From the NCBI GenBank assembly GCA_963662285.2, contig CAXXMV010000001.1:864001-928000 (forward strand): a DNA stretch of 64,000 bases, in the 5' to 3' direction. The notes under the pieces are model-generated. The model was not told the origin of the DNA, ran no database searches, and worked only from the letters and a program-made list of their open reading frames with translations. Position numbers and translations under genes: made by a program. This stretch comes from a bacterium. Lineage in GTDB: Bacteria; Hinthialibacterota; Hinthialibacteria; Hinthialibacterales; Hinthialibacteraceae. This document shows, in pieces, positions 19,096 to 29,092 of this stretch. The stretch's first letter is position 1. Each line of letters opens with the position of its first letter.

Positions 19096-20211
19096 TCAAA
19101 AACCGAATAATCTCTGATAATCCTTTTGGGCGAAGCGATCCGTCATTCCCGATATATAATCAGCGACAGATCTAGACAATCCATCAGTTTCAATCCGCTT
19201 TTGGAATGATAAAGGCAACTGATCAACATTCTGGTGGTAATATTCTAACAATCGGGAAAGCACAGTATGACAATGACTGCTGGCCCGCATAACCTTGGGA
19301 TGCCGATACAATTGGGCGAACAGAAAATCCTTGGCTTCATGAAGCTTAACTGACATCACATCACTATAATCAACCATATTATCTAAACACTGGCCATCGT
19401 TATTATCCAAGCGTTTACGGGTTTCATTTAAAACATCCGTCACCTGAGTATTGATAACGGCAATAATTACTTGAAACCAGGTGCATTTTTTATCCAGACC
19501 GGCATTACGCCCTTGAACAATTTCATGCGACTCCCGCCAAAGCGTTACCTGCAGAATATCCTCGGGATCAAGAAATCCAGCCGATATCCCATCATCCAGA
19601 TCATGACTGGTATAAGTTATTTCATCAGCAATATCAACCACTTGCGCTTCAATGGAGAGATTATTCGCCAGACTATTGATAGTGCCTTTATATGGCTTTT
19701 TGTTTTTCAATACCCCACGACGCAATTCAGCAGTTAGGTTCAAACCGGGGAAATCAGGATAACGCGACTCCAGGCAATCTAAAATTCGCAAAGCCTGAGC
19801 ATTATGCTCGAAACATAGGTCGTCACCGAGCAACTTATTCAAAACGCGCTCTCCGGTATGCCCGAATGGAGGATGACCCAGGTCATGCGCCAAAGCCAAC
19901 GCCTCGGTTAAATCTTCGTTAATACATAAGACTCGAGCCAAGGTGCGGGCGATTTGAGAAACTTCAAGCGTATGAGTCAAACGAGTCCGATAATAGTCGC
20001 CAGAGCCAGTCACAAACACCTGCGTTTTATACTCTAAACGGCGAAACGCCTCAGCGTGGACAATGCGGTCGCGGTCCCGTTGAAAGCAGGTGCGGTAATC
20101 ATGCTCCTTTTCTGGATAACGTCTCCCCAACGAATTCGCCGAACAGACAGCATAAGGAGCAAGTTGGTTCGCTTCTCGCTGTTCATATATCATTCGTGTT
20201 TTTTGATTCAT
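19096..20211 (-). CDS. dgt: Deoxyguanosinetriphosphate triphosphohydrolase (HD domain)
   Basis: FQRDRDRI, FRRLEYKTQVF, RTRLTHTLEV, HDLGHPPFGH, DYISGMTD. Confidence 0.95.
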   Translation of the reverse strand: MNQKTRMIYEQREANQLAPYAVCSANSLGRRYPEKEHDYRTCFQRDRDRIVHAEAFRRLEYKTQVFVTGSGDYYRTRLTHTLEVSQIARTLARVLCINEDLTEALALAHDLGHPPFGHTGERVLNKLLGDDLCFEHNAQALRILDCLESRYPDFPGLNLTAELRRGVLKNKKPYKGTINSLANNLSIEAQVVDIADEITYTSHDLDDGISAGFLDPEDILQVTLWRESHEIVQGRNAGLDKKCTWFQVIIAVINTQVTDVLNETRKRLDNNDGQCLDNMVDYSDVMSVKLHEAKDFLFAQLYRHPKVMRASSHCHTVLSRLLEYYHQNVDQLPLSFQKRIETDGLSRSVADYISGMTDRFAQKDYQRLFGF

Positions 20212-20226
20212 CTTTGCACCATCATT

Positions 20227-20829
20227 TTACCCTATCGAATCAGGCGGAATATACCCCGGCCTAACTGAACTCATGTCTACGATATCGCTGCCTACCCGGT
20301 AGCGGCTTCCTCCCAGGTAATAAATCAAGCAAGCTTCACCAGTCCAATTATTATCATAATAACATTGCTCGGCAGTAACGCTAAGCACTTCCCCAGTAAT
20401 AAAAGGTCTGTCACCCACCGGAGAAATATGCCTGACGCGGCATTCAATACTGGCCATACAATTGCTTATCAGCAAGGGACTGACAGATTTAGCTCGGGTC
20501 GTAGTTAAATTCAAATGGCTGATTTTATCAACATCACGACCCGAATGAACTCCACAAAAATGGACAGCCTTGACCATTGAACCACCAGGGACGCCTAACA
20601 GGAAATCGCCGCTCTTACGTATAAAATGATAACTTATATTGCTCGGTTTAAGTGAAATTCCAATCAAAGGTGGATCCAAACTCATGGGTGAATACCAGAC
20701 AAGCGGCATCAAAGAATTATTGCGTCCACTTCGTGAAGAAAGGAGCAGCAACGGATGAGTTAGCAGCATTTTGGAAAAACAATCATTTGCAACTACAACC
20801 ATAAGAGTAACATCTCTTTCATTTATCAT
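20227..20829 (-). CDS. Flavin reductase family protein
   Basis: SLDPPLIGIS, FCGVHSGRDVDK, ASIECRV. Confidence 0.85.
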   Translation of the reverse strand: MINERDVTLMVVVANDCFSKMLLTHPLLLLSSRSGRNNSLMPLVWYSPMSLDPPLIGISLKPSNISYHFIRKSGDFLLGVPGGSMVKAVHFCGVHSGRDVDKISHLNLTTTRAKSVSPLLISNCMASIECRVRHISPVGDRPFITGEVLSVTAEQCYYDNNWTGEACLIYYLGGSRYRVGSDIVDMSSVRPGYIPPDSIG

Positions 20830-21051
20830 TATATCATATAGACCAAACTAATGTGATAATCGTATATAAGCCATTATAATTAAATGTCTTAAAGCATAAT
20901 TTCATAAAAAAAATATCAATTCATGAACGATTGAATGCGCTATAACCGTTGCATTTCCGCGCTGCAATAATTACAATCGCTCATACCGTACATATTTCTT
21001 AGCGCCAAATTCCTGGCGTTAACAGACCAAAAGAAATGAGAGTAAACGACT

Positions 21052-22326
21052 GTGGCTACTGAAAGCACAACACTGACTCGTTCACCATATCAAATACTTA
21101 AGATTTCACGCTGGTCAGATGTGGAAGAAATTAAAGCAAAATACTTCCAACTAGTGAAACAATTCAATCCTGAATATTTCCCTGATGAGTTTATAGAAAT
21201 TCGTACGGCTTATGATATATTAAAAGATGCAAATACTCGTGCGGCAACCGATGTGGAACTAATGGTAACGCCGCCAGCTTTCCATTGCCCGGATTTCCCT
21301 GACTTCCCAAAACAGATTTTATCCCTTTTCAAGTTAAATCAAGAATTAAAAACGCTCTGCGGAGACCGATCGCTTGAAAGCCTAACCGGGCAGGACCGTG
21401 AACAGGCCACCCATCTTTTGCGCGGAATCGGGCTTTATCACAGCTCTCACGATCAGATGGAAGAAGCCGTTCAATCCTGGGAGCAAGCCATTGCTCTTGA
21501 CGCCGATGATCAGTCATCTCTTCAAAACATTTATTTCGCCCGTTGGGCGGAAGGATGCAAAGCGGCTAATGAAGAACAATATGAAGCCGCCGAAAAATGT
21601 TTTACCGAGATTATCGAAAAAGGGGTGCAGCACGGCGCATTATATCAAAACCTTGCGCTTGCTCAGGAGAAACAAGGTAAAAAAGAAGAATCAGCCGAAT
21701 CCTGGAGTAAAGTTCTTGAATTCTACAATAAAGAACTTAAAGTAGACCCGGAAAACGATTACCTCAAACATTTCGTTATTGCAATTCATAAATATACCGG
21801 AGGAAAATTCATGGAAAGCGGACAAAATGTCTCAGTCGGCAATTCAGGATCTTCCAAAGAACTGGGATACGCCTGCATCCAAAAGGGCAACTGGAAACAA
21901 GCAGTTGACGCCTTCGAACGCGCCCTGAACGAAAACGAAGATGATGTAGATATTCTTTGCCAACTTGGCTGGGCTTATCTCAACACCAATGCTCATAACA
22001 AAGCGTTCCACATGTGGAATAGCGCCATGAAGAAAGCGCCGGGGAAACGGTCAATAGTTGATCATCTCGTGCGCGGCTATTCGGTGTTTGGCAAAAGACT
22101 CAAAGAACAGCGCATCTTCAATCAAGCTCTGGTTCAATTTAAAATAGCACTTAAGCATGAACCAAATAACCTTGAAATTAGACTTCTTTTGGCTGATACA
22201 TATTTCCAGATGAGAAATTTCACATCTTCGTTGCTAGAATACCAGAAAGTAATTGATATAGAGCCAAGAAACAAAGTTGCTCGTCAGGGTCTTAGAGAAG
22301 CTAAACGGCTTGGAGGGCTTCGATAA
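21052..22326 (+). CDS. Atypical J-domain plus TPR-repeat protein
   Basis: SPYQILKI...EEIKAKYFQLVKQF-NPE-...FIEIRTAYDILKD J-domain with NPE at the HPD position; multiple TPRs; GTG start. Confidence 0.8.
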   Translation: MATESTTLTRSPYQILKISRWSDVEEIKAKYFQLVKQFNPEYFPDEFIEIRTAYDILKDANTRAATDVELMVTPPAFHCPDFPDFPKQILSLFKLNQELKTLCGDRSLESLTGQDREQATHLLRGIGLYHSSHDQMEEAVQSWEQAIALDADDQSSLQNIYFARWAEGCKAANEEQYEAAEKCFTEIIEKGVQHGALYQNLALAQEKQGKKEESAESWSKVLEFYNKELKVDPENDYLKHFVIAIHKYTGGKFMESGQNVSVGNSGSSKELGYACIQKGNWKQAVDAFERALNENEDDVDILCQLGWAYLNTNAHNKAFHMWNSAMKKAPGKRSIVDHLVRGYSVFGKRLKEQRIFNQALVQFKIALKHEPNNLEIRLLLADTYFQMRNFTSSLLEYQKVIDIEPRNKVARQGLREAKRLGGLR

Positions 22327-22853
22327 TGGGGTGGTTCCAAGGATCAATTGATCCCAAAGAGGCCTTTCCCATAGAAAACCTTCCCCTTGAGACAATGGGA
22401 AACCAAAAGGGTGATGCTCTTGCTTTACTATATAATCAACCTAAAGAGAATAATAATTCAGTTGGCAGACTTCCCGCTCCAATAAATATTGACAGACCGA
22501 AAGAAGATTTTTTCCGTAGAATTCTGCCAATTTTAGACGGTTTTGATAATATATTCCGCTATGCGGATCGAGCTAATCTTGAGGGTGATGATACTCTTTC
22601 AAATTGGTTGAAAACTCTTGAGACTTTATATAGAAGACTCTTATCTACTCTAGAAAAAGAAGGTCTTGTTGCGATAGAATCAAAAGGATTGCCGGTGGAT
22701 TTCTCGATACACGAAGTGATCGATACGCGTGAAGATCCAAATGTTTCAGATAACACTATTATCGAAGAGATGGTTAAAGGTTATAAGTTTGGCAGGAGAG
22801 TTTTAAGAGACGCAAAGGTTATTGTCGCCAAAAAAATCATACCGGGAAAATAA
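22326..22853 (+). CDS. GrpE-like nucleotide exchange factor with divergent N-terminus
   Basis: ILPILDGFD, DFSIHEVI, IIEEMVKGYKFGRRVLRDAKVIVAK; start overlaps upstream stop (TAATG). Confidence 0.85.
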   Translation: MGWFQGSIDPKEAFPIENLPLETMGNQKGDALALLYNQPKENNNSVGRLPAPINIDRPKEDFFRRILPILDGFDNIFRYADRANLEGDDTLSNWLKTLETLYRRLLSTLEKEGLVAIESKGLPVDFSIHEVIDTREDPNVSDNTIIEEMVKGYKFGRRVLRDAKVIVAKKIIPGK

Positions 22854-23006
22854 TCCGGTGAATTTATAGTATATTATTCAATAGTATTTCTTAGTATTGA
22901 TTAAAGATATTAATGCAGCTGGAGAAAACCAGCGACAAAAATTTAATTTTAAGATAATATATGATATCCGATGTATATAAAAAAGCATCGGGGGAGCAGG
23001 TATTTC

Positions 23007-24761
23007 ATGGCACGTATTTTGGGCATTGATCTTGGAACAACCAATTCAGTTGTTGCGATTATGCAAGGGGATTCACCAAGCATTATCCCCAATGATGTAG
23101 GAGACCGCATAACACCCTCCATCGTCTATTTTCAGGATAATGGATCTCTTTTAGTCGGGAAAAAAGCCCGTCGCGCTGCTGGTCTAAATCCGGAAAGATC
23201 CGTCTTTTCCATTAAAAGACACATGGGCACAGCGTTTAGAGTAGAAGTAGACGGTCAAAAACACACTCCTCAAGAAATCTCCGCCGCTATCTTGCAAAAG
23301 ATGAAAGTCGACGCCGAAAATTATTTAGGCGAAGAATGCACTCAAGCCGTCATTACGGTTCCTGCTTATTTTACCGATGCTCAACGCCAGGCGACTCGTG
23401 ACGCTGGTCAGATTGCCGGATTCCATGTTCGCCGCATCATCGACGAACCTACGGCTGCTGCAATTTCTTATGGTCTTGAAAAAGAACAAGATCAAGTCCT
23501 TATGGTCTATGACCTTGGCGGTGGAACCTTCGACGTTTCCATCATCGAGATGGTGGAAAGCGTATTTCAGGTTCTTTCCATCAAGGGTAACAACCACTTG
23601 GGCGGTGACGATTTCGACCAGAGGATCGTTGAATATCTGATTAAGCGATTCAAGGAAAAAGAAGGCATTGATCTATCCAATGACACCAAAGCGCTCTTCC
23701 GGCTCAGAGAAGCGGCTCAAGAAGCTAAAATTGAACTTTCTGGAGTAACCAATACGCAAATTATTATTGATGCGATTGCAATGACCTCCAGTGGTCCTTT
23801 GACTTTAGATGAAGAACTCACCCGCGCAAATTTCGAGAGTTTAGTACACGATCTCTTGGAAATGACTATCGAACCAACTCGGCAAGCCATTAAAGACGCT
23901 GGATTAACTCCTGAAGATATTTCTAATGTACTTCTGGTTGGTGGCAGCACGCGCATCCCGGCGGTTCAACAGTTAGTCGCCAAAATCGTTTCCAAAGAGC
24001 CTCGAAAAGACGTCAATCCTGATGAATGCGTCGCCTTGGGCGCTGCGGTTCAAGCCTCTATCCTGGCGCCGCTGGATGATGAATTGGAAATGACCTCTGC
24101 TGACCAGATCAGCAAAGACGGTCCGGTTATCGTCCACTTGACGCCTTTCTCACTTGGCGTAGGGTTATCTGACGACCGTTATGGGGTTCTAATTGAGAGA
24201 AACTCCACTTATCCGACTGAAGCGCGTGATATGTTCACCACTACCCGTGATTTCCAGTCCGCCATCAGCTTCCCGATTTACGAAGGTGAAGAGATGATCG
24301 CTTCTCAAAACACATTTCTGGATATGCTGCGCATCGACGATATTCCACCGGCGCCGCGCGGCGTGCCTAGGATTGAAGTCACCTTCCGTCTGAATCAAGA
24401 CCGTATTCTTGAAGCAACCGCCAAAGATTTAACCACTAACAGAGAAATCAGCATTACCGTTCTTTCTACCGATAACCGGTTGACTGAAGAGCAAGTTGGC
24501 GATCTACGTATAAAAGCCCATGAACGCGTTAATGTTATGGTTGATAAACGTAAAGAAGATGAGATGGCCAACGAAGTGGACAGCCTCGTGTTTCGCGCCA
24601 GACGACTCTTCACCGACCAGGAAGATCCTCTGGCAGAAGAGGCCATGCAGATTATAAGAGAATTGGAAAATGCGCGTAATGAATCCAATGAAGAGTCTGT
24701 ACAAGAGAAATTCGGTCAACTCTCTGAAATGCTGGCTAAATACGATTCAGACGACTATTGA
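23007..24761 (+). CDS. Hsp70/DnaK paralog
   Basis: GIDLGTTNS, VITVPAYF, DLGGGTFDVS, VGGSTRIP, APRGVPRIEVTF; divergent linker and short C-terminus. Confidence 0.95.
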   Translation: MARILGIDLGTTNSVVAIMQGDSPSIIPNDVGDRITPSIVYFQDNGSLLVGKKARRAAGLNPERSVFSIKRHMGTAFRVEVDGQKHTPQEISAAILQKMKVDAENYLGEECTQAVITVPAYFTDAQRQATRDAGQIAGFHVRRIIDEPTAAAISYGLEKEQDQVLMVYDLGGGTFDVSIIEMVESVFQVLSIKGNNHLGGDDFDQRIVEYLIKRFKEKEGIDLSNDTKALFRLREAAQEAKIELSGVTNTQIIIDAIAMTSSGPLTLDEELTRANFESLVHDLLEMTIEPTRQAIKDAGLTPEDISNVLLVGGSTRIPAVQQLVAKIVSKEPRKDVNPDECVALGAAVQASILAPLDDELEMTSADQISKDGPVIVHLTPFSLGVGLSDDRYGVLIERNSTYPTEARDMFTTTRDFQSAISFPIYEGEEMIASQNTFLDMLRIDDIPPAPRGVPRIEVTFRLNQDRILEATAKDLTTNREISITVLSTDNRLTEEQVGDLRIKAHERVNVMVDKRKEDEMANEVDSLVFRARRLFTDQEDPLAEEAMQIIRELENARNESNEESVQEKFGQLSEMLAKYDSDDY

Positions 24762-24802
24762 TCTTCTCGTCGTACTACCCCTTAGTCCTTTACTGCATTA
24801 TC

Positions 24803-24830
24803 ATGAGACGGCTAATCAGCCGTCTCATTT
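24803..24830 (+). terminator. Hairpin after the Hsp70 gene
   Basis: ATGAGACGGCT-aatc-AGCCGTCTCAT-TT; short U tract. Confidence 0.55.
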
Positions 24831-25038
24831 CGTTGATTGAGATTAATAGATTTTTTTCGTGACGCGCTATTCTTGTCAATCGTTACCATTTTAGAGAGTA
24901 GTTTGTATAATGACGTTCTGATACGCGTCTCTAAAAAATAAATAAACCTGATTTTTTAAATATATCGTGATTCGAATCCTGATTTATTTTTGAAGATTCG
25001 CTTCTAAAGTTTTCAGGTATGGAGAAAGGAATAATCGA

Positions 25039-26631
25039 ATGGATACCCTCCAGTGTCCTGCATGTGGAACCATAAACTCCGGACAAGCGTTAGTTTGCCA
25101 GGAGTGCAATGAAGACCTCAATACAATCAAAAACGTTCTCGATACAGCTAAACAGCATTACAACGAGGCGCTTGCCTTAGCGCAGAGTAATAGATTGGAT
25201 GAAGCTATCGGCCAGATAGAAGCGGCGTTAGCCATAACATCACATGATCCGAACTATCATCTCCTTCTGGGAACTCTGAATGCTCAAAAAGAGAACTATG
25301 ATGGCGCCATCATGGCATGGGAACGCTGCCTGTCTATAAATCCCGATATTGAAAAAGCTTACCACAACATCGAGAAAGCCCATCAAATGCACGAGGAGGA
25401 AGAATACGAGCAACGCAAGCGCCCTTTCCTGCTCGGCGCCATAGGCGCAGGCGTTGCGGCTGTTATATTCCTCTTTTCCACCGGATTCTTAGCTGGACAG
25501 CTCTATTTCAAGAATAGAGAAATCACTCAACTTACGTCAATCCTGGAAACAAAAAACAATGAGACCAATGACTGGCGTCAAAAATTTATCACCCTTAGTG
25601 AGAATTTCCCCAAAGAAGGTCTACAAGGGCTTCTAGCCCAAGTTTCACAATGGAAAACGCTGGCGGAACAACGTCAAATAACCATTGAACAAACTGAAGC
25701 ACGCTATAAAACCAGCATTGATCAACGTAATCAGGAAATTCAATCTCGACAGCAAAAAATCCAGGAATTAGAAAGTCAGATTGCCAATCTGCGCAAATCG
25801 ATAACTCAAATCAATCCATTAAGACACTCTCTCGTGGTCAAAAGCAAGGATATTGAAAAAAAAGATACTGTTATAAATGCGCAAAATGCCAAACTACTGG
25901 AAAACAAGAATCAAATCAGTCTGCTATCACAACAATTAGCAGCAGCGCAGCAACAAATCGATGCGAATAAAGCCAGTCATCAGGATGCTCTGACCCAAAC
26001 GCAATCCAACGCTGGTAAAGAGATCGAAAACCTGCGTATAGAGATACAAAAACTGCTCGACCAAATTGCCGAGAAAGATCGTGAATTGACCGACTTGGAA
26101 TATGCCGATAATTTAGTCGTAGAAGCGATTCAGAAATTTGAAGACAATAAATTCACCGAATCTTCATCTCTGGTTCAAAATGCTCTGGAACGGAGAAAAG
26201 ATCACGCTCCTTCTCTTTATATCCAAAAAAATCTTCAAACAATTCTTTCTAATCCAGTAGAAGAGGAAGTCTATCGACAGATTGCAGCAAACCGACCATC
26301 AATGCGTACTCAAATTCGTACAGAATTAGCCAACCGGAAAATAAACCAGGCCATGAACTATCTTGGCCAAGGAGAATTCGATAACGCTATTAAAACCGCT
26401 CAGACCACCTTGGCTTTTCTCTCTGCTGATTCAAACGAAGCAAAACAATGCAACCAGCTAATTCAAAAAGCCGAAAAAGATGAAGCGGATATAACCCGTC
26501 AACTTTCTGAAGCGCGTATCTACATTGACGACAAAAATTTCAGAAAAGCCAAAACGCTACTGAAAGATATAATTAAGCGGTCGCCGTCTTTCACCGAAGC
26601 AAGCGTTCTTTTAGGCCAGATTGATCAATAA
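25039..26631 (+). CDS. Zn-ribbon / TPR / transmembrane / coiled-coil / TPR protein
   Basis: CPAC-x10-CQEC, about three TPRs, TM segment PFLLGAIGAGVAAVIFLFSTGFL, long Q/E/K heptad region, C-terminal TPRs. Confidence 0.8.
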   Translation: MDTLQCPACGTINSGQALVCQECNEDLNTIKNVLDTAKQHYNEALALAQSNRLDEAIGQIEAALAITSHDPNYHLLLGTLNAQKENYDGAIMAWERCLSINPDIEKAYHNIEKAHQMHEEEEYEQRKRPFLLGAIGAGVAAVIFLFSTGFLAGQLYFKNREITQLTSILETKNNETNDWRQKFITLSENFPKEGLQGLLAQVSQWKTLAEQRQITIEQTEARYKTSIDQRNQEIQSRQQKIQELESQIANLRKSITQINPLRHSLVVKSKDIEKKDTVINAQNAKLLENKNQISLLSQQLAAAQQQIDANKASHQDALTQTQSNAGKEIENLRIEIQKLLDQIAEKDRELTDLEYADNLVVEAIQKFEDNKFTESSSLVQNALERRKDHAPSLYIQKNLQTILSNPVEEEVYRQIAANRPSMRTQIRTELANRKINQAMNYLGQGEFDNAIKTAQTTLAFLSADSNEAKQCNQLIQKAEKDEADITRQLSEARIYIDDKNFRKAKTLLKDIIKRSPSFTEASVLLGQIDQ

Positions 26632-26645
26632 ACACACAGTAAACT

Positions 26646-26690
26646 AGTTGGTGAAATGCTTGGGATCACCCGGCATTTCACCAACTTTTA
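26646..26690 (+). terminator. Rho-independent terminator
   Basis: AGTTGGTGAAATGC..GCATTTCACCAACT-TTT. Confidence 0.75.
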
Positions 26691-26927
26691 TGTTGTAAAT
26701 CCAGCAAATAAATCCATTTAACATAAATGCCATCAGGTTAATAAACTATCAGTTAATTGGCGCCCTCTCTTAGTTTTTCTCATTCATCCATTTTTATGCA
26801 GTTCCAGATTGGATAATTCATCCGTTTTGCGTTACCATTATAGTAATTGATATGAGGATGTCTTTATTTTCTAAATTACATAATTTCAGAAACCGCTATA
26901 GCGGAAATTTAACAACGGATTCATCGT

Positions 26928-27695
26928 ATGTATTCAGATCAGATCAAATTATTGCTTGAGCAGGTTCGTGGAAATAGCATCTCCATTGAAGACGCTATGA
27001 CTGCTCTCAAACACCTGCCCTATGAAAGTTTAGGATTCGCCACAATTGATCACCACCGCTCATTGCGGCAGGGAGTACCTGAAGTAATATTCTGTCAAAA
27101 CAAGACGCTTGAAGAGATTACTGAAATTATTCATTGTCTACAAAACAAGAATCAGCCTGTACTGGCAACCAGAGCAACGCAGGAAACCTTTGAAGCATTA
27201 AAAGATATTTTCCCTGATGGTGAATTTTATGAACGATCCCGCGTAATCACCATCGGAGGTGATCATGCGCCTACTCCAGTTGGAAATGTTTTAATCGCCT
27301 GCGCCGGGACTTCTGATCTGCCGGTTGCTGAAGAAGCCGCTGTCACTGCTCAGTTCACCGGATCGAACGTGACCCGGTTAACCGATGTCGGCGTAGCAGG
27401 CATCCATCGTTTATTGGGTCGCCTGGATATTATCCACCAGGCCAATGCTATTGTGGTGGTTGCAGGTATGGAAGGCGCTTTAGCCAGCGTTATTGGAGGT
27501 TTAGCCGAGGCGCCTGTTATCGCCACGCCCACCAGTGTGGGATATGGCGCCAGTTTCGGCGGCATTGCTGCTCTTCTATCAATGCTGAACAGTTGCAGCG
27601 CAGGCGTTACGGTAGTTAATATAGATAATGGTTTTGGAGCCGGATTCGCGGCCAGTTTGATCAATAAACGCATCTGCCAAGCCAAAACGGAGTAA
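26928..27695 (+). CDS. larB: Nickel pincer cofactor biosynthesis protein LarB (PurE-like)
   Basis: IDHHRSLRQGVPEVIF, AGTSDLPVAEEA, DVGVAGIHRL, GMEGAL, VVNIDNGFGA. Confidence 0.93.
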   Translation: MYSDQIKLLLEQVRGNSISIEDAMTALKHLPYESLGFATIDHHRSLRQGVPEVIFCQNKTLEEITEIIHCLQNKNQPVLATRATQETFEALKDIFPDGEFYERSRVITIGGDHAPTPVGNVLIACAGTSDLPVAEEAAVTAQFTGSNVTRLTDVGVAGIHRLLGRLDIIHQANAIVVVAGMEGALASVIGGLAEAPVIATPTSVGYGASFGGIAALLSMLNSCSAGVTVVNIDNGFGAGFAASLINKRICQAKTE

Positions 27696-27700
27696 TCAGG

Positions 27701-29092
27701 ATGATAGATTCTTTTTCCCAACTCAATCCATTCAGGCGAAGTTATGCCCTCCTGCTTAAATGTTGTATTCTGCTAATCATTTCTTTGTCCACGCTTACGC
27801 TTTATGCTGATATAGTCACGCTTAAAGACGGCGCCACTTTGCGCTGTCAGGTGATCCGGGAGACCCAGTCGCCTGCCACAGGTGAACGCTATATCGAAAT
27901 CCGCATCGCCCAATCGATTATTTGGATTAACCGGGATGCAGTGGATCGGATCGACTCCACTCCGCCGCCTCAATCCACCAGCCTTGAAATGCAACAATTG
28001 ATAAAACGTTTGACTGCGGAAGGCATATTGGTTCCTTCAGTTCAAAAACAACTAGATTTTGACCAGAAGATAGTTCCAGAACCAGAAAAAGAGCAGAAAA
28101 TCCCCATAACTATCACAGACCTGCGCGGTTGGGCTTATATCTACCAAAACGAAAAGGCCATGAATGATGGACAGCGCATACTAGTGGCCATTGGTGATAC
28201 ATTGCCGCTTGGTTATATCCTTTCGCTTTCTCCTAATACCCGTATGACAATGAACTTAAAAGATGTGGGAGACATTGGGCTGGAAGCGGGAGCAGAAATT
28301 CGCTTTGATGAGATGACCAAAAACTCTTCAATGCTAAAATACACAATAGCGCTGCGACTGGAAAAAGGGCGCTGCTGGTTTGATATTAAATCAACCGAAA
28401 ATGTCATCCTCCGCACCAATTCAGTTCGCTGCATAATCCAGGAAGCTGTATTCTTTACCAATACTACAGATAAACCCGGCGCAATAGATATTACATACCT
28501 AAGAGGGAAAGACAGTCTCCGCTTTTCCAGAAACAGATTATCCGAAGAACCATCTATGGTTGATGTCGGGCAGATTCTGAAAGTTGATCCGGCGTCAAAT
28601 AAACTCCCTGTAGAAGCGGCATCCAACATTTCCGATCTGGAAGAGACAATAAAAACTTGGAAGGATTGGCAGCCTGAAAAATTGGATATTGCCATCGAAC
28701 AGGTTATTCCGCCATTAATGACCTTCCCTTCATTCCGGGCGCTGCCAGCGTTGCATCCTTACAAATTGAATATTGATCAAAGTTTAATGCTGCCGCCCGA
28801 AACCCGCAGTTTGGGTGAGATTCTCAACGTCTACAAAAAAGCGCTGCAACAATACCGAATCGACACTGGCGCTTATCCAACTTTTGATCAGGGTTTGGAC
28901 GCATTATTTCAAAGTAATGATAAAGCCGGATGGAAGGGTCCATACGTTTCGTTGGCTCTGCCGCGGCGTGATTCATGGGGTGAACCTTTCTTATATGATA
29001 TTTACACTGAAAAAGGGCGTACTTACGTAGATATCCGCAGCAAAGGACCCAACCGCAAAGATGATAAAGGATTGGGAGATGATTTCCGTTAG
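27701..29092 (+). CDS. Exported FecR-like domain protein fused to a GspG-like C-terminal domain
   Basis: Signal peptide; central FecR-like beta region (IGLEAGAEIRF..LRLEKGRCWF); C-terminal YRIDTGAYPT.DQGLDAL..GWKGPY..DSWGEPFLY..SKGPN..GDD. Confidence 0.65.
   Translation: MIDSFSQLNPFRRSYALLLKCCILLIISLSTLTLYADIVTLKDGATLRCQVIRETQSPATGERYIEIRIAQSIIWINRDAVDRIDSTPPPQSTSLEMQQLIKRLTAEGILVPSVQKQLDFDQKIVPEPEKEQKIPITITDLRGWAYIYQNEKAMNDGQRILVAIGDTLPLGYILSLSPNTRMTMNLKDVGDIGLEAGAEIRFDEMTKNSSMLKYTIALRLEKGRCWFDIKSTENVILRTNSVRCIIQEAVFFTNTTDKPGAIDITYLRGKDSLRFSRNRLSEEPSMVDVGQILKVDPASNKLPVEAASNISDLEETIKTWKDWQPEKLDIAIEQVIPPLMTFPSFRALPALHPYKLNIDQSLMLPPETRSLGEILNVYKKALQQYRIDTGAYPTFDQGLDALFQSNDKAGWKGPYVSLALPRRDSWGEPFLYDIYTEKGRTYVDIRSKGPNRKDDKGLGDDFR

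Follow-up and report, generated by a model that had tools for sequence, protein, structure and literature searches.

A conserved Hsp70, J-like and GrpE-like gene trio with a His-less J-domain motif in the Hinthialibacteria

Results

Gene organization of the locus

The DNA considered here is a 64,000-nucleotide stretch of contig CAXXMV010000001.1 (assembly GCA_963662285.2), referred to as the window, from a bacterium of the class Hinthialibacteria. Between positions 21052 and 26631 it carries four plus-strand open reading frames (ORFs) that encode, in order, a J-like protein with tetratricopeptide repeats (TPRs), here called J-TPR, a GrpE-like exchange factor, an Hsp70 paralog, and a protein with Zn-ribbon, TPR, transmembrane (TM), and coiled-coil regions (protein 4). 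The first three genes are a real, conserved, and dedicated Hsp70-J-GrpE set, which is a variant of the specialized Hsp70 systems with a His-less J-domain. An earlier, sequence-only reading of the same DNA had described four co-oriented genes with a stop/start overlap between the first two, and the ORF list reproduces both exactly, with the gene 1 stop and the gene 2 start sharing the sequence TAATG at 22324-22328. That reading had also regarded every chaperone component as noncanonical, which is borne out by the Asn-Pro-Glu (NPE) motif of the J-like domain, the partial GrpE profile match, and the divergence of the Hsp70. Coordinates are collected in Table 1.

Table 1. Features of the chaperone locus in window coordinates
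Feature	Position	Strand	Description and basis
J-like(NPE)-TPR co-chaperone gene	21052..22326	+	424 aa, GTG start; Pfam DnaJ and TPR models
J-like domain, aa 12-67	21085..21252	+	Pfam match, AlphaFold2 (AF2) helices, alignment with E. coli DnaJ/DjlB/DjlC
N39-P40-E41 in place of His-Pro-Asp	21166..21174	+	Alignments
Two TPR arrays, aa 92-249 and 268-421, with a disordered loop between them	21325..22314	+	AF2 secondary structure, pLDDT
GrpE-like exchange factor, N-terminally truncated, 175 aa	22326..22853	+	Pfam GrpE, PDB profile search
F-P-I-E-N-L-P motif, aa 14-20 of the GrpE-like protein	22365..22385	+	Ortholog alignments
GrpE core: bundle helices aa 57-82 and 89-112, beta domain aa 114-169	22494..22832	+	AF2 model
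Hsp70 paralog, 584 aa, likely start	23007..24761	+	Pfam, NCBIfam, ortholog lengths, trees
Interdomain linker with 13-aa insertion	24063..24140	+	Alignments
Hsp70 extreme C terminus K-Y-D-S-D-D-Y, candidate docking peptide	24738..24758	+	Alignments
Hairpin, 11-bp stem, 4-nt loop, possible terminator or attenuator	24803..24828	+	Sequence, fold z-score
Zn-ribbon/TPR/TM/coiled-coil protein gene, 530 aa	25039..26631	+	Pfam TPR, sequence reading
Perfect 14-nt inverted repeat, terminator-like, just 3' of the fourth gene	26646..26686	+	Sequence

The longest ORF for the Hsp70 spans 22971-24761 and would encode 596 residues. Its orthologs are 584 residues long in 11 of 19 cases and 581-583 residues long in three more, and because ortholog lengths cluster there, the start is probably the ATG at 23007. 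A hairpin begins 42 nt past the Hsp70 stop and has a folding z-score of -3.25, with none of 200 shuffled sequences folding equally well. Because the fourth gene is preceded by this hairpin and followed by an inverted repeat, it may be a separate transcription unit, and as far as the nucleotide sequence indicates, genes 1 to 3 look like one transcription unit and gene 4 like another.

The J-TPR protein

The J-TPR protein matches the Pfam DnaJ model over residues 12-67 at 37.7 bits, against a cut-off of 27.8, as well as many TPR models. Its AF2 model has a predicted local distance difference test score (pLDDT) of 88.5, which is ~90 in the J-like domain, and the fold of that domain consists of four helices at residues 12-16, 24-37, 44-58, and 60-67. 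The His-Pro-Asp (HPD) motif, present in ~99% of J-domains (PMC13580251), is NPE in the window protein and N/S-P-E in all 19 orthologs that have an N terminus; the first residue of the motif is N in the window's own family and S in all other families of the class. P40, E41, and F47 are invariant across phyla, and the x-P-E loop is therefore under selection. Compared with E. coli DnaJ, K26 is replaced by F or Y, R27 is variable, H33 is replaced by N or S, and D35 is replaced by E. Six residues after the motif are missing, such that the loop between helices II and III is shortened to the same extent as in DjlB and DjlC of E. coli; both of these also have Glu for Asp35 and lack K26 and R27. DjlB and DjlC keep His33, giving an HPE motif, whereas J-TPR has N or S at that position. 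BLASTP aligns J-TPR with DjlB at 37% identity over 43 residues (E 1e-5). A Foldseek search of the J-TPR model against the PDB gave generic TPR superhelices with low TM-scores and no specific functional lead. The identity of J-TPR orthologs to the window protein is 25-64%.

The GrpE-like protein

The GrpE-like protein scores 83.5 bits with the Pfam GrpE model, which is over the cut-off, yet the match covers only positions 60-165 of the 165-position profile, and the NCBIfam GrpE equivalog cut-offs are missed (best 60.5 versus 137). It is 175 residues long, versus 228 residues for the canonical GrpE of the same genome, which matches the profile over positions 7-164. A profile built from 15 orthologs matches residues 91-212 of 213 in PDB entry 4ANI (E 3e-24) and residues 63-195 of 197 in 1DKG, and because the solved GrpE proteins are matched only from residue 91 or 63 onward, the long N-terminal GrpE helix is concluded to be gone. 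In the AF2 model residues 1-55 are disordered (pLDDT <55) and the beta domain is confident. Within the disordered N terminus the FPIENLP motif is conserved, with P15 and P20 invariant. Ortholog identity to the window protein is 28-66%.

The Hsp70 paralog and its rewired positions

The paralog matches Pfam HSP70 (PF00012) at 598 bits and is 46% identical to the canonical DnaK of its own genome (263 of 570 aligned positions). Among the NCBIfam DnaK equivalog models it narrowly passes NF001413 (660 versus 648 bits) and fails TIGR02350 (634.8 versus 822.55), NF009947, and NF009946. The catalytic residues D8, K70, E171, D194, T199, and D201 are retained in all 20 paralogs aligned, and judged by these residues the protein is a DnaK-derived ATPase. 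Seven substrate-cleft residues are changed in a fixed manner among the paralogs. The interdomain linker carries a 13-residue insertion and ends in P-V-I-V-H-L, versus the canonical D-V-L-L-L-D-V; the insertion is present in 20/20 orthologs, and outside them only in representative P0055. The C-terminal consensus of the orthologs is K-Y-E-T-A-D-Y.

In a simulation paper that cites the crystal structure of the J-Hsp70 complex, the contacts given are H33 with L391/L392, D35 with R167, and K26 with E217 (PMC13012618). These positions, numbered on E. coli DnaK and DnaJ, were compared between the 20 paralogs and 29 canonical DnaK proteins of the phylum. Arg167 is kept in every sequence of both sets (20/20 and 29/29). 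At the other positions the canonical proteins are uniform (29/29) for N170, E217, L391, L392, and D393, whereas the paralogs have D170, Q217, V392, and H393 in 20/20 and I391, with V in one of them. The linker DVLLLD and the N170/E217/L391/L392/D393 combination that mark a housekeeping DnaK are thus both lacking in the paralog. These fixed changes suggest that the J-like domain and the paralog are a co-adapted and probably insulated pair.

A general compensatory rule relating the x-P-E motif to Hsp70 positions 170, 217, and 393 was considered and rejected, as it holds in the Hinthialibacteria clade only. In a co-fold of the TPR part of J-TPR (residues 85-424) with the substrate-binding domain, lid, and tail of the paralog (residues 372-584), for which both partners were supplied as alignments, the two scores (0.28 and 0.24) fell short of the 0.32 mark, a result that is neutral with respect to docking of the tail.

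Phylogeny and conservation of the trio

On contig 8 of the window genome (7.29 Mb in eight contigs, 92.5% complete) a canonical grpE and dnaK lie together (HSP70, 883.5 bits; GrpE, 160.8 bits), and the genome also encodes two HPD J-proteins, a class-A DnaJ and a CbpA-like protein. The paralog is consequently not the sole DnaK of the genome, and the separate canonical locus that the sequence-only reading had proposed to look for exists. J-TPR orthologs are found in 35/35 Hinthialibacteria genomes, counting that of the window, and the six genomes searched outside the class give weak TPR or J matches, or none. Assignment to the class, and to Candidatus Hinthialibacterota (OLB16), follows the names of close matches, among which many MAGs still carry the label Omnitrophota. 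The same 35 genomes all encode both a canonical DnaK (71-84% identity) and the paralog type (~45-48% to the canonical query). Twenty loci were fetched, with contigs carrying both the first and the fourth gene favored, and in 19 of them the J-TPR, GrpE-like, and Hsp70 genes are adjacent; the remaining locus, in G026, is taken up in the Discussion. Apart from the trio, nothing in the locus is shared by every family of the class: family f5, genus g21, and genome G007 have unrelated flanks. The proposed conservation of a four-gene neighborhood thus stands for genes 1 to 3, which co-occur throughout the class, and holds for the fourth gene in most genomes and not in all. Identity of the Hsp70 orthologs to the window protein is 62-81%.

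An exhaustive HMMER search of 1.84 billion representatives returned 69,148 hits, of which only P0055 (59% identity) has both the linker insertion and the RxIDEP motif; the only name listed for the nearest representatives of the paralog is "molecular chaperone DnaK". Two trees were built in quick searches, and the root was not inferred in either. The first (IQ-TREE, LG+G4) has 120 rows, comprising the 20 paralogs, 29 canonical DnaK proteins from 30 loci, and 71 of the 150 listed representatives, for which lengths of 560-700 residues were admitted and 79 were dropped on that ground. In this tree the paralogs form one clade (support 95), which P0055 (99) and then P0136 (100) join, and the canonical DnaK proteins form a clade of their own (100). 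Both clades track taxonomy, as would be expected if each had been inherited vertically from the ancestor of the class. The second tree has 92 rows, uses a site-heterogeneous model, and adds E. coli HscC and seven x-P-E-linked Hsp70 proteins of other phyla. In it HscC groups with six of these seven (support 96), and the window clade lies apart from both the HscC group and the DnaK-type rows (split support 98). In both trees, therefore, the paralog falls outside housekeeping DnaK, and the grouping with DnaK that would have spoken against a specialized Hsp70 is not seen.

Related modules outside the class

Scanning with J-TPR turned up 27 additional loci of the Hinthialibacteria type and scanning with an alignment of the J-domain alone turned up 7, and 17 loci lay outside that type. 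An Hsp70 gene is present in eight of the 17 (L115, L116, L117, L120, L129, L132, L133, and L137), four of which also have a Pfam-confirmed GrpE gene. The other nine show no Hsp70 gene in the stretch fetched, which is 12-16 kb of context for L119, L134, and L136 and six contigs of no more than 6.7 kb for the rest. Similar modules, with an x-P-E J-protein, an Hsp70, and often a GrpE, occur in cyanobacteria, a gammaproteobacterial metagenome-assembled genome, an Oscillospiraceae genome, and metagenome contigs. Abbreviating GrpE, Hsp70, and the J-protein as E, K, and J, the gene order is E-K-J in L115 and L133 and K-J in L116 and L120. It is J, TPR/Lon_C, Zn-ribbon/TPR/TM, E, K in the gammaproteobacterial L117, and TPR, J, E, K, Zn-ribbon in L137. 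In the L117 module (L117:4595-13178) an additional TPR protein carries the C-terminal domain of Lon protease (Lon_C, 133.8 bits), and the J-TPR protein has a zinc ribbon and a TM segment at its end. The module immediately follows a GmrSD_N/AlbA_2 gene and may for this reason sit in a defense island.

A profile search of 5.8 billion proteins gave at least 3135 matches at E up to 1e-6, with 8000 candidates scored. Among 104 newly listed proteins, the motif could be placed in 103, and His is found in none of them, the variants being SPE, PPE, TPE, NPE, and others. The matches come from Nostocales, Clostridia (often with a SEC-C motif), and Bacillus; in P0274, P0279, P0285, P0289-P0291, and others the J-like domain is accompanied by a SEC-C motif (PF02810), and TPRs may or may not be present. 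In cyanobacteria the x-P-E J-protein is sporadic, with matches at E up to 1e-20 in two of the 151 genomes sampled, and the module is therefore accessory elsewhere and fixed in the Hinthialibacteria.

The fourth gene

Protein 4 consists of a Zn-ribbon region (residues 3-27), TPRs (residues 37-106), a TM segment at about residues 129-155, a coiled coil, and a C-terminal TPR-like region. The TPR models exceed their Pfam cut-offs. Zinc-ribbon models reach 17-19 bits against a cut-off of 27, and the putative Zn ribbon is therefore assigned from the CPxCG...CxxC pattern. The TM segment and the coiled coil were read from the sequence, and weak SMC/HrpB7-type matches are in line with the latter. Clusters of Zn-ribbon/TPR proteins in Bacillota, found in the ESM Atlas, are a lead only. 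As read from the match tables, the gene lies within 10 kb of the J-TPR gene on the same contig in 21 of the 34 relatives within the class, with G005 having it on the opposite strand. In G003 and G026 it stands beside the paralog on a contig other than that of J-TPR. Many relatives have two copies of the protein 4 type. Downstream, the window carries a LarB/AIR-carboxylase-like gene and a gene for a 463-residue protein with a C-terminal type II secretion system (T2SS) protein-G domain (26928-29092), and synteny with the fourth gene is kept in families f1, f2, f4 (larB), and f6.

Regulatory sequences and flanking genes

A scan for promoters and terminators found 13 promoter-like sites against 16.2 expected and nine terminator-like sites against 7.1 expected, neither being above chance, and the promoter-like site at 24883-24911, before the fourth gene, is a consensus match only. 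An Rfam scan of 20000-27500 gave no match at E up to 0.1. The sequence-only reading had pointed to the lack of hrcA and of a CIRCE element. This is correct for the window, where no CIRCE match was found with up to three mismatches. HrcA, however, has no match anywhere in the genome, and the whole genome holds a single CIRCE-like site, with three mismatches. Because the genome as a whole lacks HrcA and nearly lacks CIRCE, their absence at the locus is uninformative and lends the claim no weight. The four flanking ORFs scanned with Pfam encode an HD phosphohydrolase, a flavin reductase, an AIRC/LarB-like protein, and a T2SS-G-like protein.

Discussion

A probable self-contained Hsp70 machine and its alternatives

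We consider it likely, on the strength of the sequence comparisons, that genes 1 to 3 form a vertically inherited operon encoding a self-contained Hsp70 machine that is insulated from the housekeeping DnaK-DnaJ-GrpE system. The sequence-only reading had proposed that the Hsp70 is a dedicated one, served by a J-protein and an exchange factor of its own. This core of the reading is well supported by the retention of the trio throughout the class, the fixed and matching changes at J-contact positions, and the occurrence of similar modules elsewhere. In such a machine, the TPR arrays would select a few clients or a location, the retuned J-like domain would trigger ATP hydrolysis only on the matching paralog, and the private GrpE would reset the paralog. 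With these predicted roles, the trio would work like HscC-DjlB/DjlC or HscA-HscB, with the addition of its own exchange factor. The Zn-ribbon/TPR/TM/coiled-coil protein might serve as membrane anchor or client. Its presence in every genome searched, its vertical inheritance, and its strong conservation speak for a core cellular role of the trio in the phylum.

Several observations are difficult to accommodate in this picture. The x-P-E-linked Hsp70 proteins outside the phylum, and HscC, keep N170 and D393, and those outside the phylum mostly have E or D at position 217, so the matching changes are specific to the clade and do not constitute a rule for the family. K26 is lost across the whole DjlB/DjlC-like group regardless of the residue at Hsp70 position 217. 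According to a 2026 review, HPE is the one tolerated change to HPD, and the remaining variants are presumably nonfunctional (PMC13254874). In G026, finally, J-TPR stands alone on a 10.7-kb contig and the paralog, cut by a contig end, is on another contig.

The loss of the motif His raises the alternative that the J-like domain is a nonstimulating tether or regulator, of the "type IV" kind exemplified by mitochondrial Pam16/Tim16, that only docks the TPR scaffold on the paralog, in which case clients by themselves or the canonical DnaJ/CbpA would drive hydrolysis. In simulation, H33A binds yet blocks the stimulating state (PMC13012618), which favors this alternative, as does the description of HPD-mutated J-proteins as presumably nonfunctional (PMC13254874), and helix II has also lost its basic residues K26 and R27. 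The module, however, encodes no HPD J-protein, and the J-contact residues of the paralog differ from those of the canonical DnaK that is served by HPD J-proteins. The invariance of P40, E41, and F47 across phyla and the retention of R167, the partner of D35, in 20/20 paralogs would also be unexpected, and DjlB and DjlC, with the same short loop and an HPE motif, are reported to work with HscC (PMC8215388, PMC13254874). We therefore regard a tether as unlikely. That the paralog is a mere second, stress-inducible DnaK sharing clients and co-chaperones with the housekeeping system is highly implausible: duplication is common in bacteria with large proteomes (PMC11019930) and NF001413 is just passed, but TIGR02350 is missed by a wide score difference (635 versus 822.55), differences at J-contact, linker, and substrate-cleft positions are fixed, the paralogs form a separate clade, and divergent J-like and GrpE-like genes of their own stand in the operon. 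An anti-phage or conflict system, in which the Hsp70 would be a sensor or switch as in the GAP1-N2 GTPase systems, is also very unlikely for the phylum. HSP70, GrpE, and DnaJ/TPR themes do recur in conflict systems (PMC7159879), the L117 module adds its TPR/Lon-protease protein and adjoins a GmrSD_N/AlbA_2 gene, and the cyanobacterial distribution is sporadic. Against this, the trio is present at a stable position in 35/35 genomes of the phylum, its tree tracks taxonomy, its conservation is near that of the housekeeping DnaK, and the four flanking ORFs scanned contain no GTPase, nuclease, or other effector. In PADLOC 2.0 three of the four proteins match no family and the Hsp70 has only a 19.2-bit hit to the candidate PDC-M61B. 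The lack of a PADLOC match, the vertical inheritance, and the presence in every genome searched make defense unlikely in this phylum.

Whether the system extends to the fourth gene is a more finely balanced matter. The probability that the system is the three-gene core only, with the fourth gene a syntenic bystander that has an unrelated envelope role, falls in our estimate slightly short of one half. The gene travels as a block with larB and the T2SS-G-like gene, which follow the same synteny pattern, and because the unrelated larB does so, adjacency within the phylum is indistinguishable from plain synteny. In G007 (assembled in ~20 contigs), G022, G024, and G025 the gene has no linkage to the trio, and in family f5 (seven genomes) its matches are weak and on other contigs. 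The window genome also has an unlinked, full-length paralog of protein 4 with 33% identity (G000 contig 1, 862270-863880), which lies a short distance upstream of where the window begins, is flanked by a cystathionine-synthase-like gene and nusA, and has no chaperone gene in its vicinity. Finally, the hairpin and the promoter-like site set the fourth gene apart from the trio, and the inverted repeat follows it. All of these count against a four-gene system. On the other side, the N-terminal 185 residues of protein 4, its Zn-ribbon/TPR/TM part, have a homolog (28% identity, E 5e-12) encoded between the J-TPR and GrpE-like genes of L117, and a small Zn-ribbon/helical protein follows the Hsp70 in L137, though it has no BLASTP similarity to protein 4. 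J-proteins of this type are membrane-anchored elsewhere (L117, L120, and DjlC), and family f4 keeps the fourth gene beside the paralog even where J-TPR is elsewhere. The sequence-only reading suggested that the machine may act on the TPR membrane protein or be recruited by it, for example in envelope remodeling, complex disassembly, or defense. Protein 4 is the best candidate for a membrane anchor or client, and a functional link between the fourth gene and the trio has about even chances.

A bolder extension of the insulated-machine reading would be that the His-less x-P-E domain is a fully active, HPD-independent trigger, that TPRs of J-TPR and/or protein 4 dock the tail of the paralog in an EEVD-like manner, and that the whole is a membrane-tethered, orthogonal Hsp70 motor at the tip of a large uncharacterized family; we consider this combination improbable. 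HPD is treated as a defining and indispensable feature of the J-domain, and here a His-less variant with invariant Pro-Glu is found throughout a class and in a family of thousands. If the J-like domain is active, it would show that there is a second way in which a J-domain can be coupled to the Hsp70 linker, and the trio would be a ready-made orthogonal set of Hsp70, J-protein, and nucleotide exchange factor for studies of mechanism and for synthetic biology. If it is inactive, it would be a bacterial counterpart of the Pam16-type J-like regulators. The trio is a natural test case for the rewiring of Hsp70 machines.

Comparison with known chaperone systems

By analogy, the closest functional comparator is HscC-DjlB/DjlC, and a second one is the GrpE-MxDnaK2 pair of Myxococcus xanthus. 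HscC is likewise a specialized Hsp70 with private J-proteins. The published features of HscC-type proteins are a deletion in lobe I of the nucleotide-binding domain, a short lid, and a length of 550-580 residues (PMC8215388). The paralog shares the deletion (~21 residues, at DnaK 76-101), its lid is likewise short and is not followed by a long tail, and at 584 residues it is slightly longer. The hscC region of E. coli K-12 (L139:1-7394) consists of repeated sets of Sel1-repeat (ybeQ, ybeT), DUF1266 (ybeR, ybeU), and J-protein (djlB, djlC) genes, and because TPR-like Sel1 genes recur there, TPR-like repeat proteins can be said to accompany HscC as well. A link to the membrane, or service to membrane proteins, has been proposed for HscC-DjlB/DjlC (PMC8215388). 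The two systems differ in other respects. The paralog is 32% identical to HscC versus 46% to its own DnaK, and it lies outside the HscC-like group in the second tree. HscC and the x-P-E-linked Hsp70 proteins of other phyla have an insertion in loop L1,2 of the substrate-binding domain, for which 4-8 residues is the published range, whereas the paralog has none. Subdomain IIB is shortened by an 18-residue gap in E. coli HscC but not in the paralog, and the intact IIB region fits the use of GrpE. HscC is thought to need no exchange factor, whereas the paralog has its own, translationally coupled GrpE-like gene. The linker reads ILTD in HscC and VIVHL, with the 13-residue insertion, in the paralog, and DjlC is of a membrane-anchored type with a C-terminal hydrophobic end, whereas the J-TPR of the window is soluble and has TPR arrays. 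Assignment of the paralog as an HscC-type Hsp70 is accordingly rejected on the basis of the tree, the L1,2 loop, the IIB region, and the private GrpE.

The HscA-HscB pair is similar in comprising a dedicated Hsp70 and a private J-protein with few clients, and it differs in that the HscB J-domain carries HPD. The paralog scores 441 against the HscA model cut-off of 708.55, and no Fe-S assembly genes are found among the flanking ORFs scanned. HscA is described as working without an exchange factor (PMC8215388). The M. xanthus protein MxDnaK2 (SglK) is nonessential, has no C-terminal tail, is preceded directly by the GrpE homolog MXAN_6672, and has a client set enriched in membrane proteins and roles in social behavior (PMC11019930). 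It resembles the window paralog in being a tail-less DnaK paralog with its own upstream GrpE-like gene; it differs in that no J neighbor is reported and in that its linker is near-identical to that of MxDnaK1, a comparison made on the published description.

J-domains and TPR arrays are likewise united in one protein in DNAJC7 and DNAJC3/P58IPK, although the domain order of P58IPK is the reverse of that in J-TPR; P58(IPK) is among the Foldseek matches of J-TPR, at rank 38, where the fold matches are generic for TPRs. The conserved acidic and aromatic C terminus of the paralog could act as a putative EEVD-like peptide in TPR docking. The GAP1-N2 GTPase conflict systems join HSP70, GrpE, and DnaJ- or TPR-fused proteins; they are defined by the GAP1-N2 GTPase and an FNIII-repeat protein, and most reports of them come from actinobacteria and firmicutes (Kaur et al. 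2020, PMC7159879). They differ from the present locus, where no GTPase or FNIII-repeat protein is found among the four flanking ORFs scanned. For J-domains in general, a large J-protein survey reports HPE as the only variant, in ~1% of J-domains (PMC10410713). A search of the full-text literature returned no description of the module; supplements and Barriot et al. 2020 (J Mol Biol) lay outside this search and may list such proteins.

Other Hsp70 genes in the phylum

Further DnaK-like paralogs, 41-49% identical to canonical DnaK, occur in several relatives (G008:C298:3315-6043, G024:C58, G022:C295, and others), and Hsp70 gene families seem to be expanded in the Hinthialibacterota. The DnaK-like paralog of G008 adjoins a small J-domain ORF. 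The window genome (G000) itself has a further, much more divergent cluster on the minus strand of contig 1 at ~208-214 kb (L010:837-2097, L003:71-2445), with a gene for a 212-residue GrpE-like protein and an Hsp70-like gene that is split into a 223-residue N-terminal half and a 325-residue C-terminal half, being interrupted by a transposase-like ORF pair (486 and 154 residues). A 286-residue TM protein and a 171-residue lipoprotein-like TPR protein follow, and upstream there are two divergently oriented ORFs, one Cys-rich and one with a P-loop. An intact cluster of the same kind is found on contig 8 at 1294486-1301228 (part of which is L004), with genes for a P-loop ATPase-like protein of 676 residues and a Cys-rich protein of 189 residues on the minus strand, then a 195-residue ORF, an Hsp70-like protein of 536 residues, a 262-residue ORF, and a lipoprotein-like protein of 263 residues. 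This intact cluster could be a conflict-type Hsp70 system.

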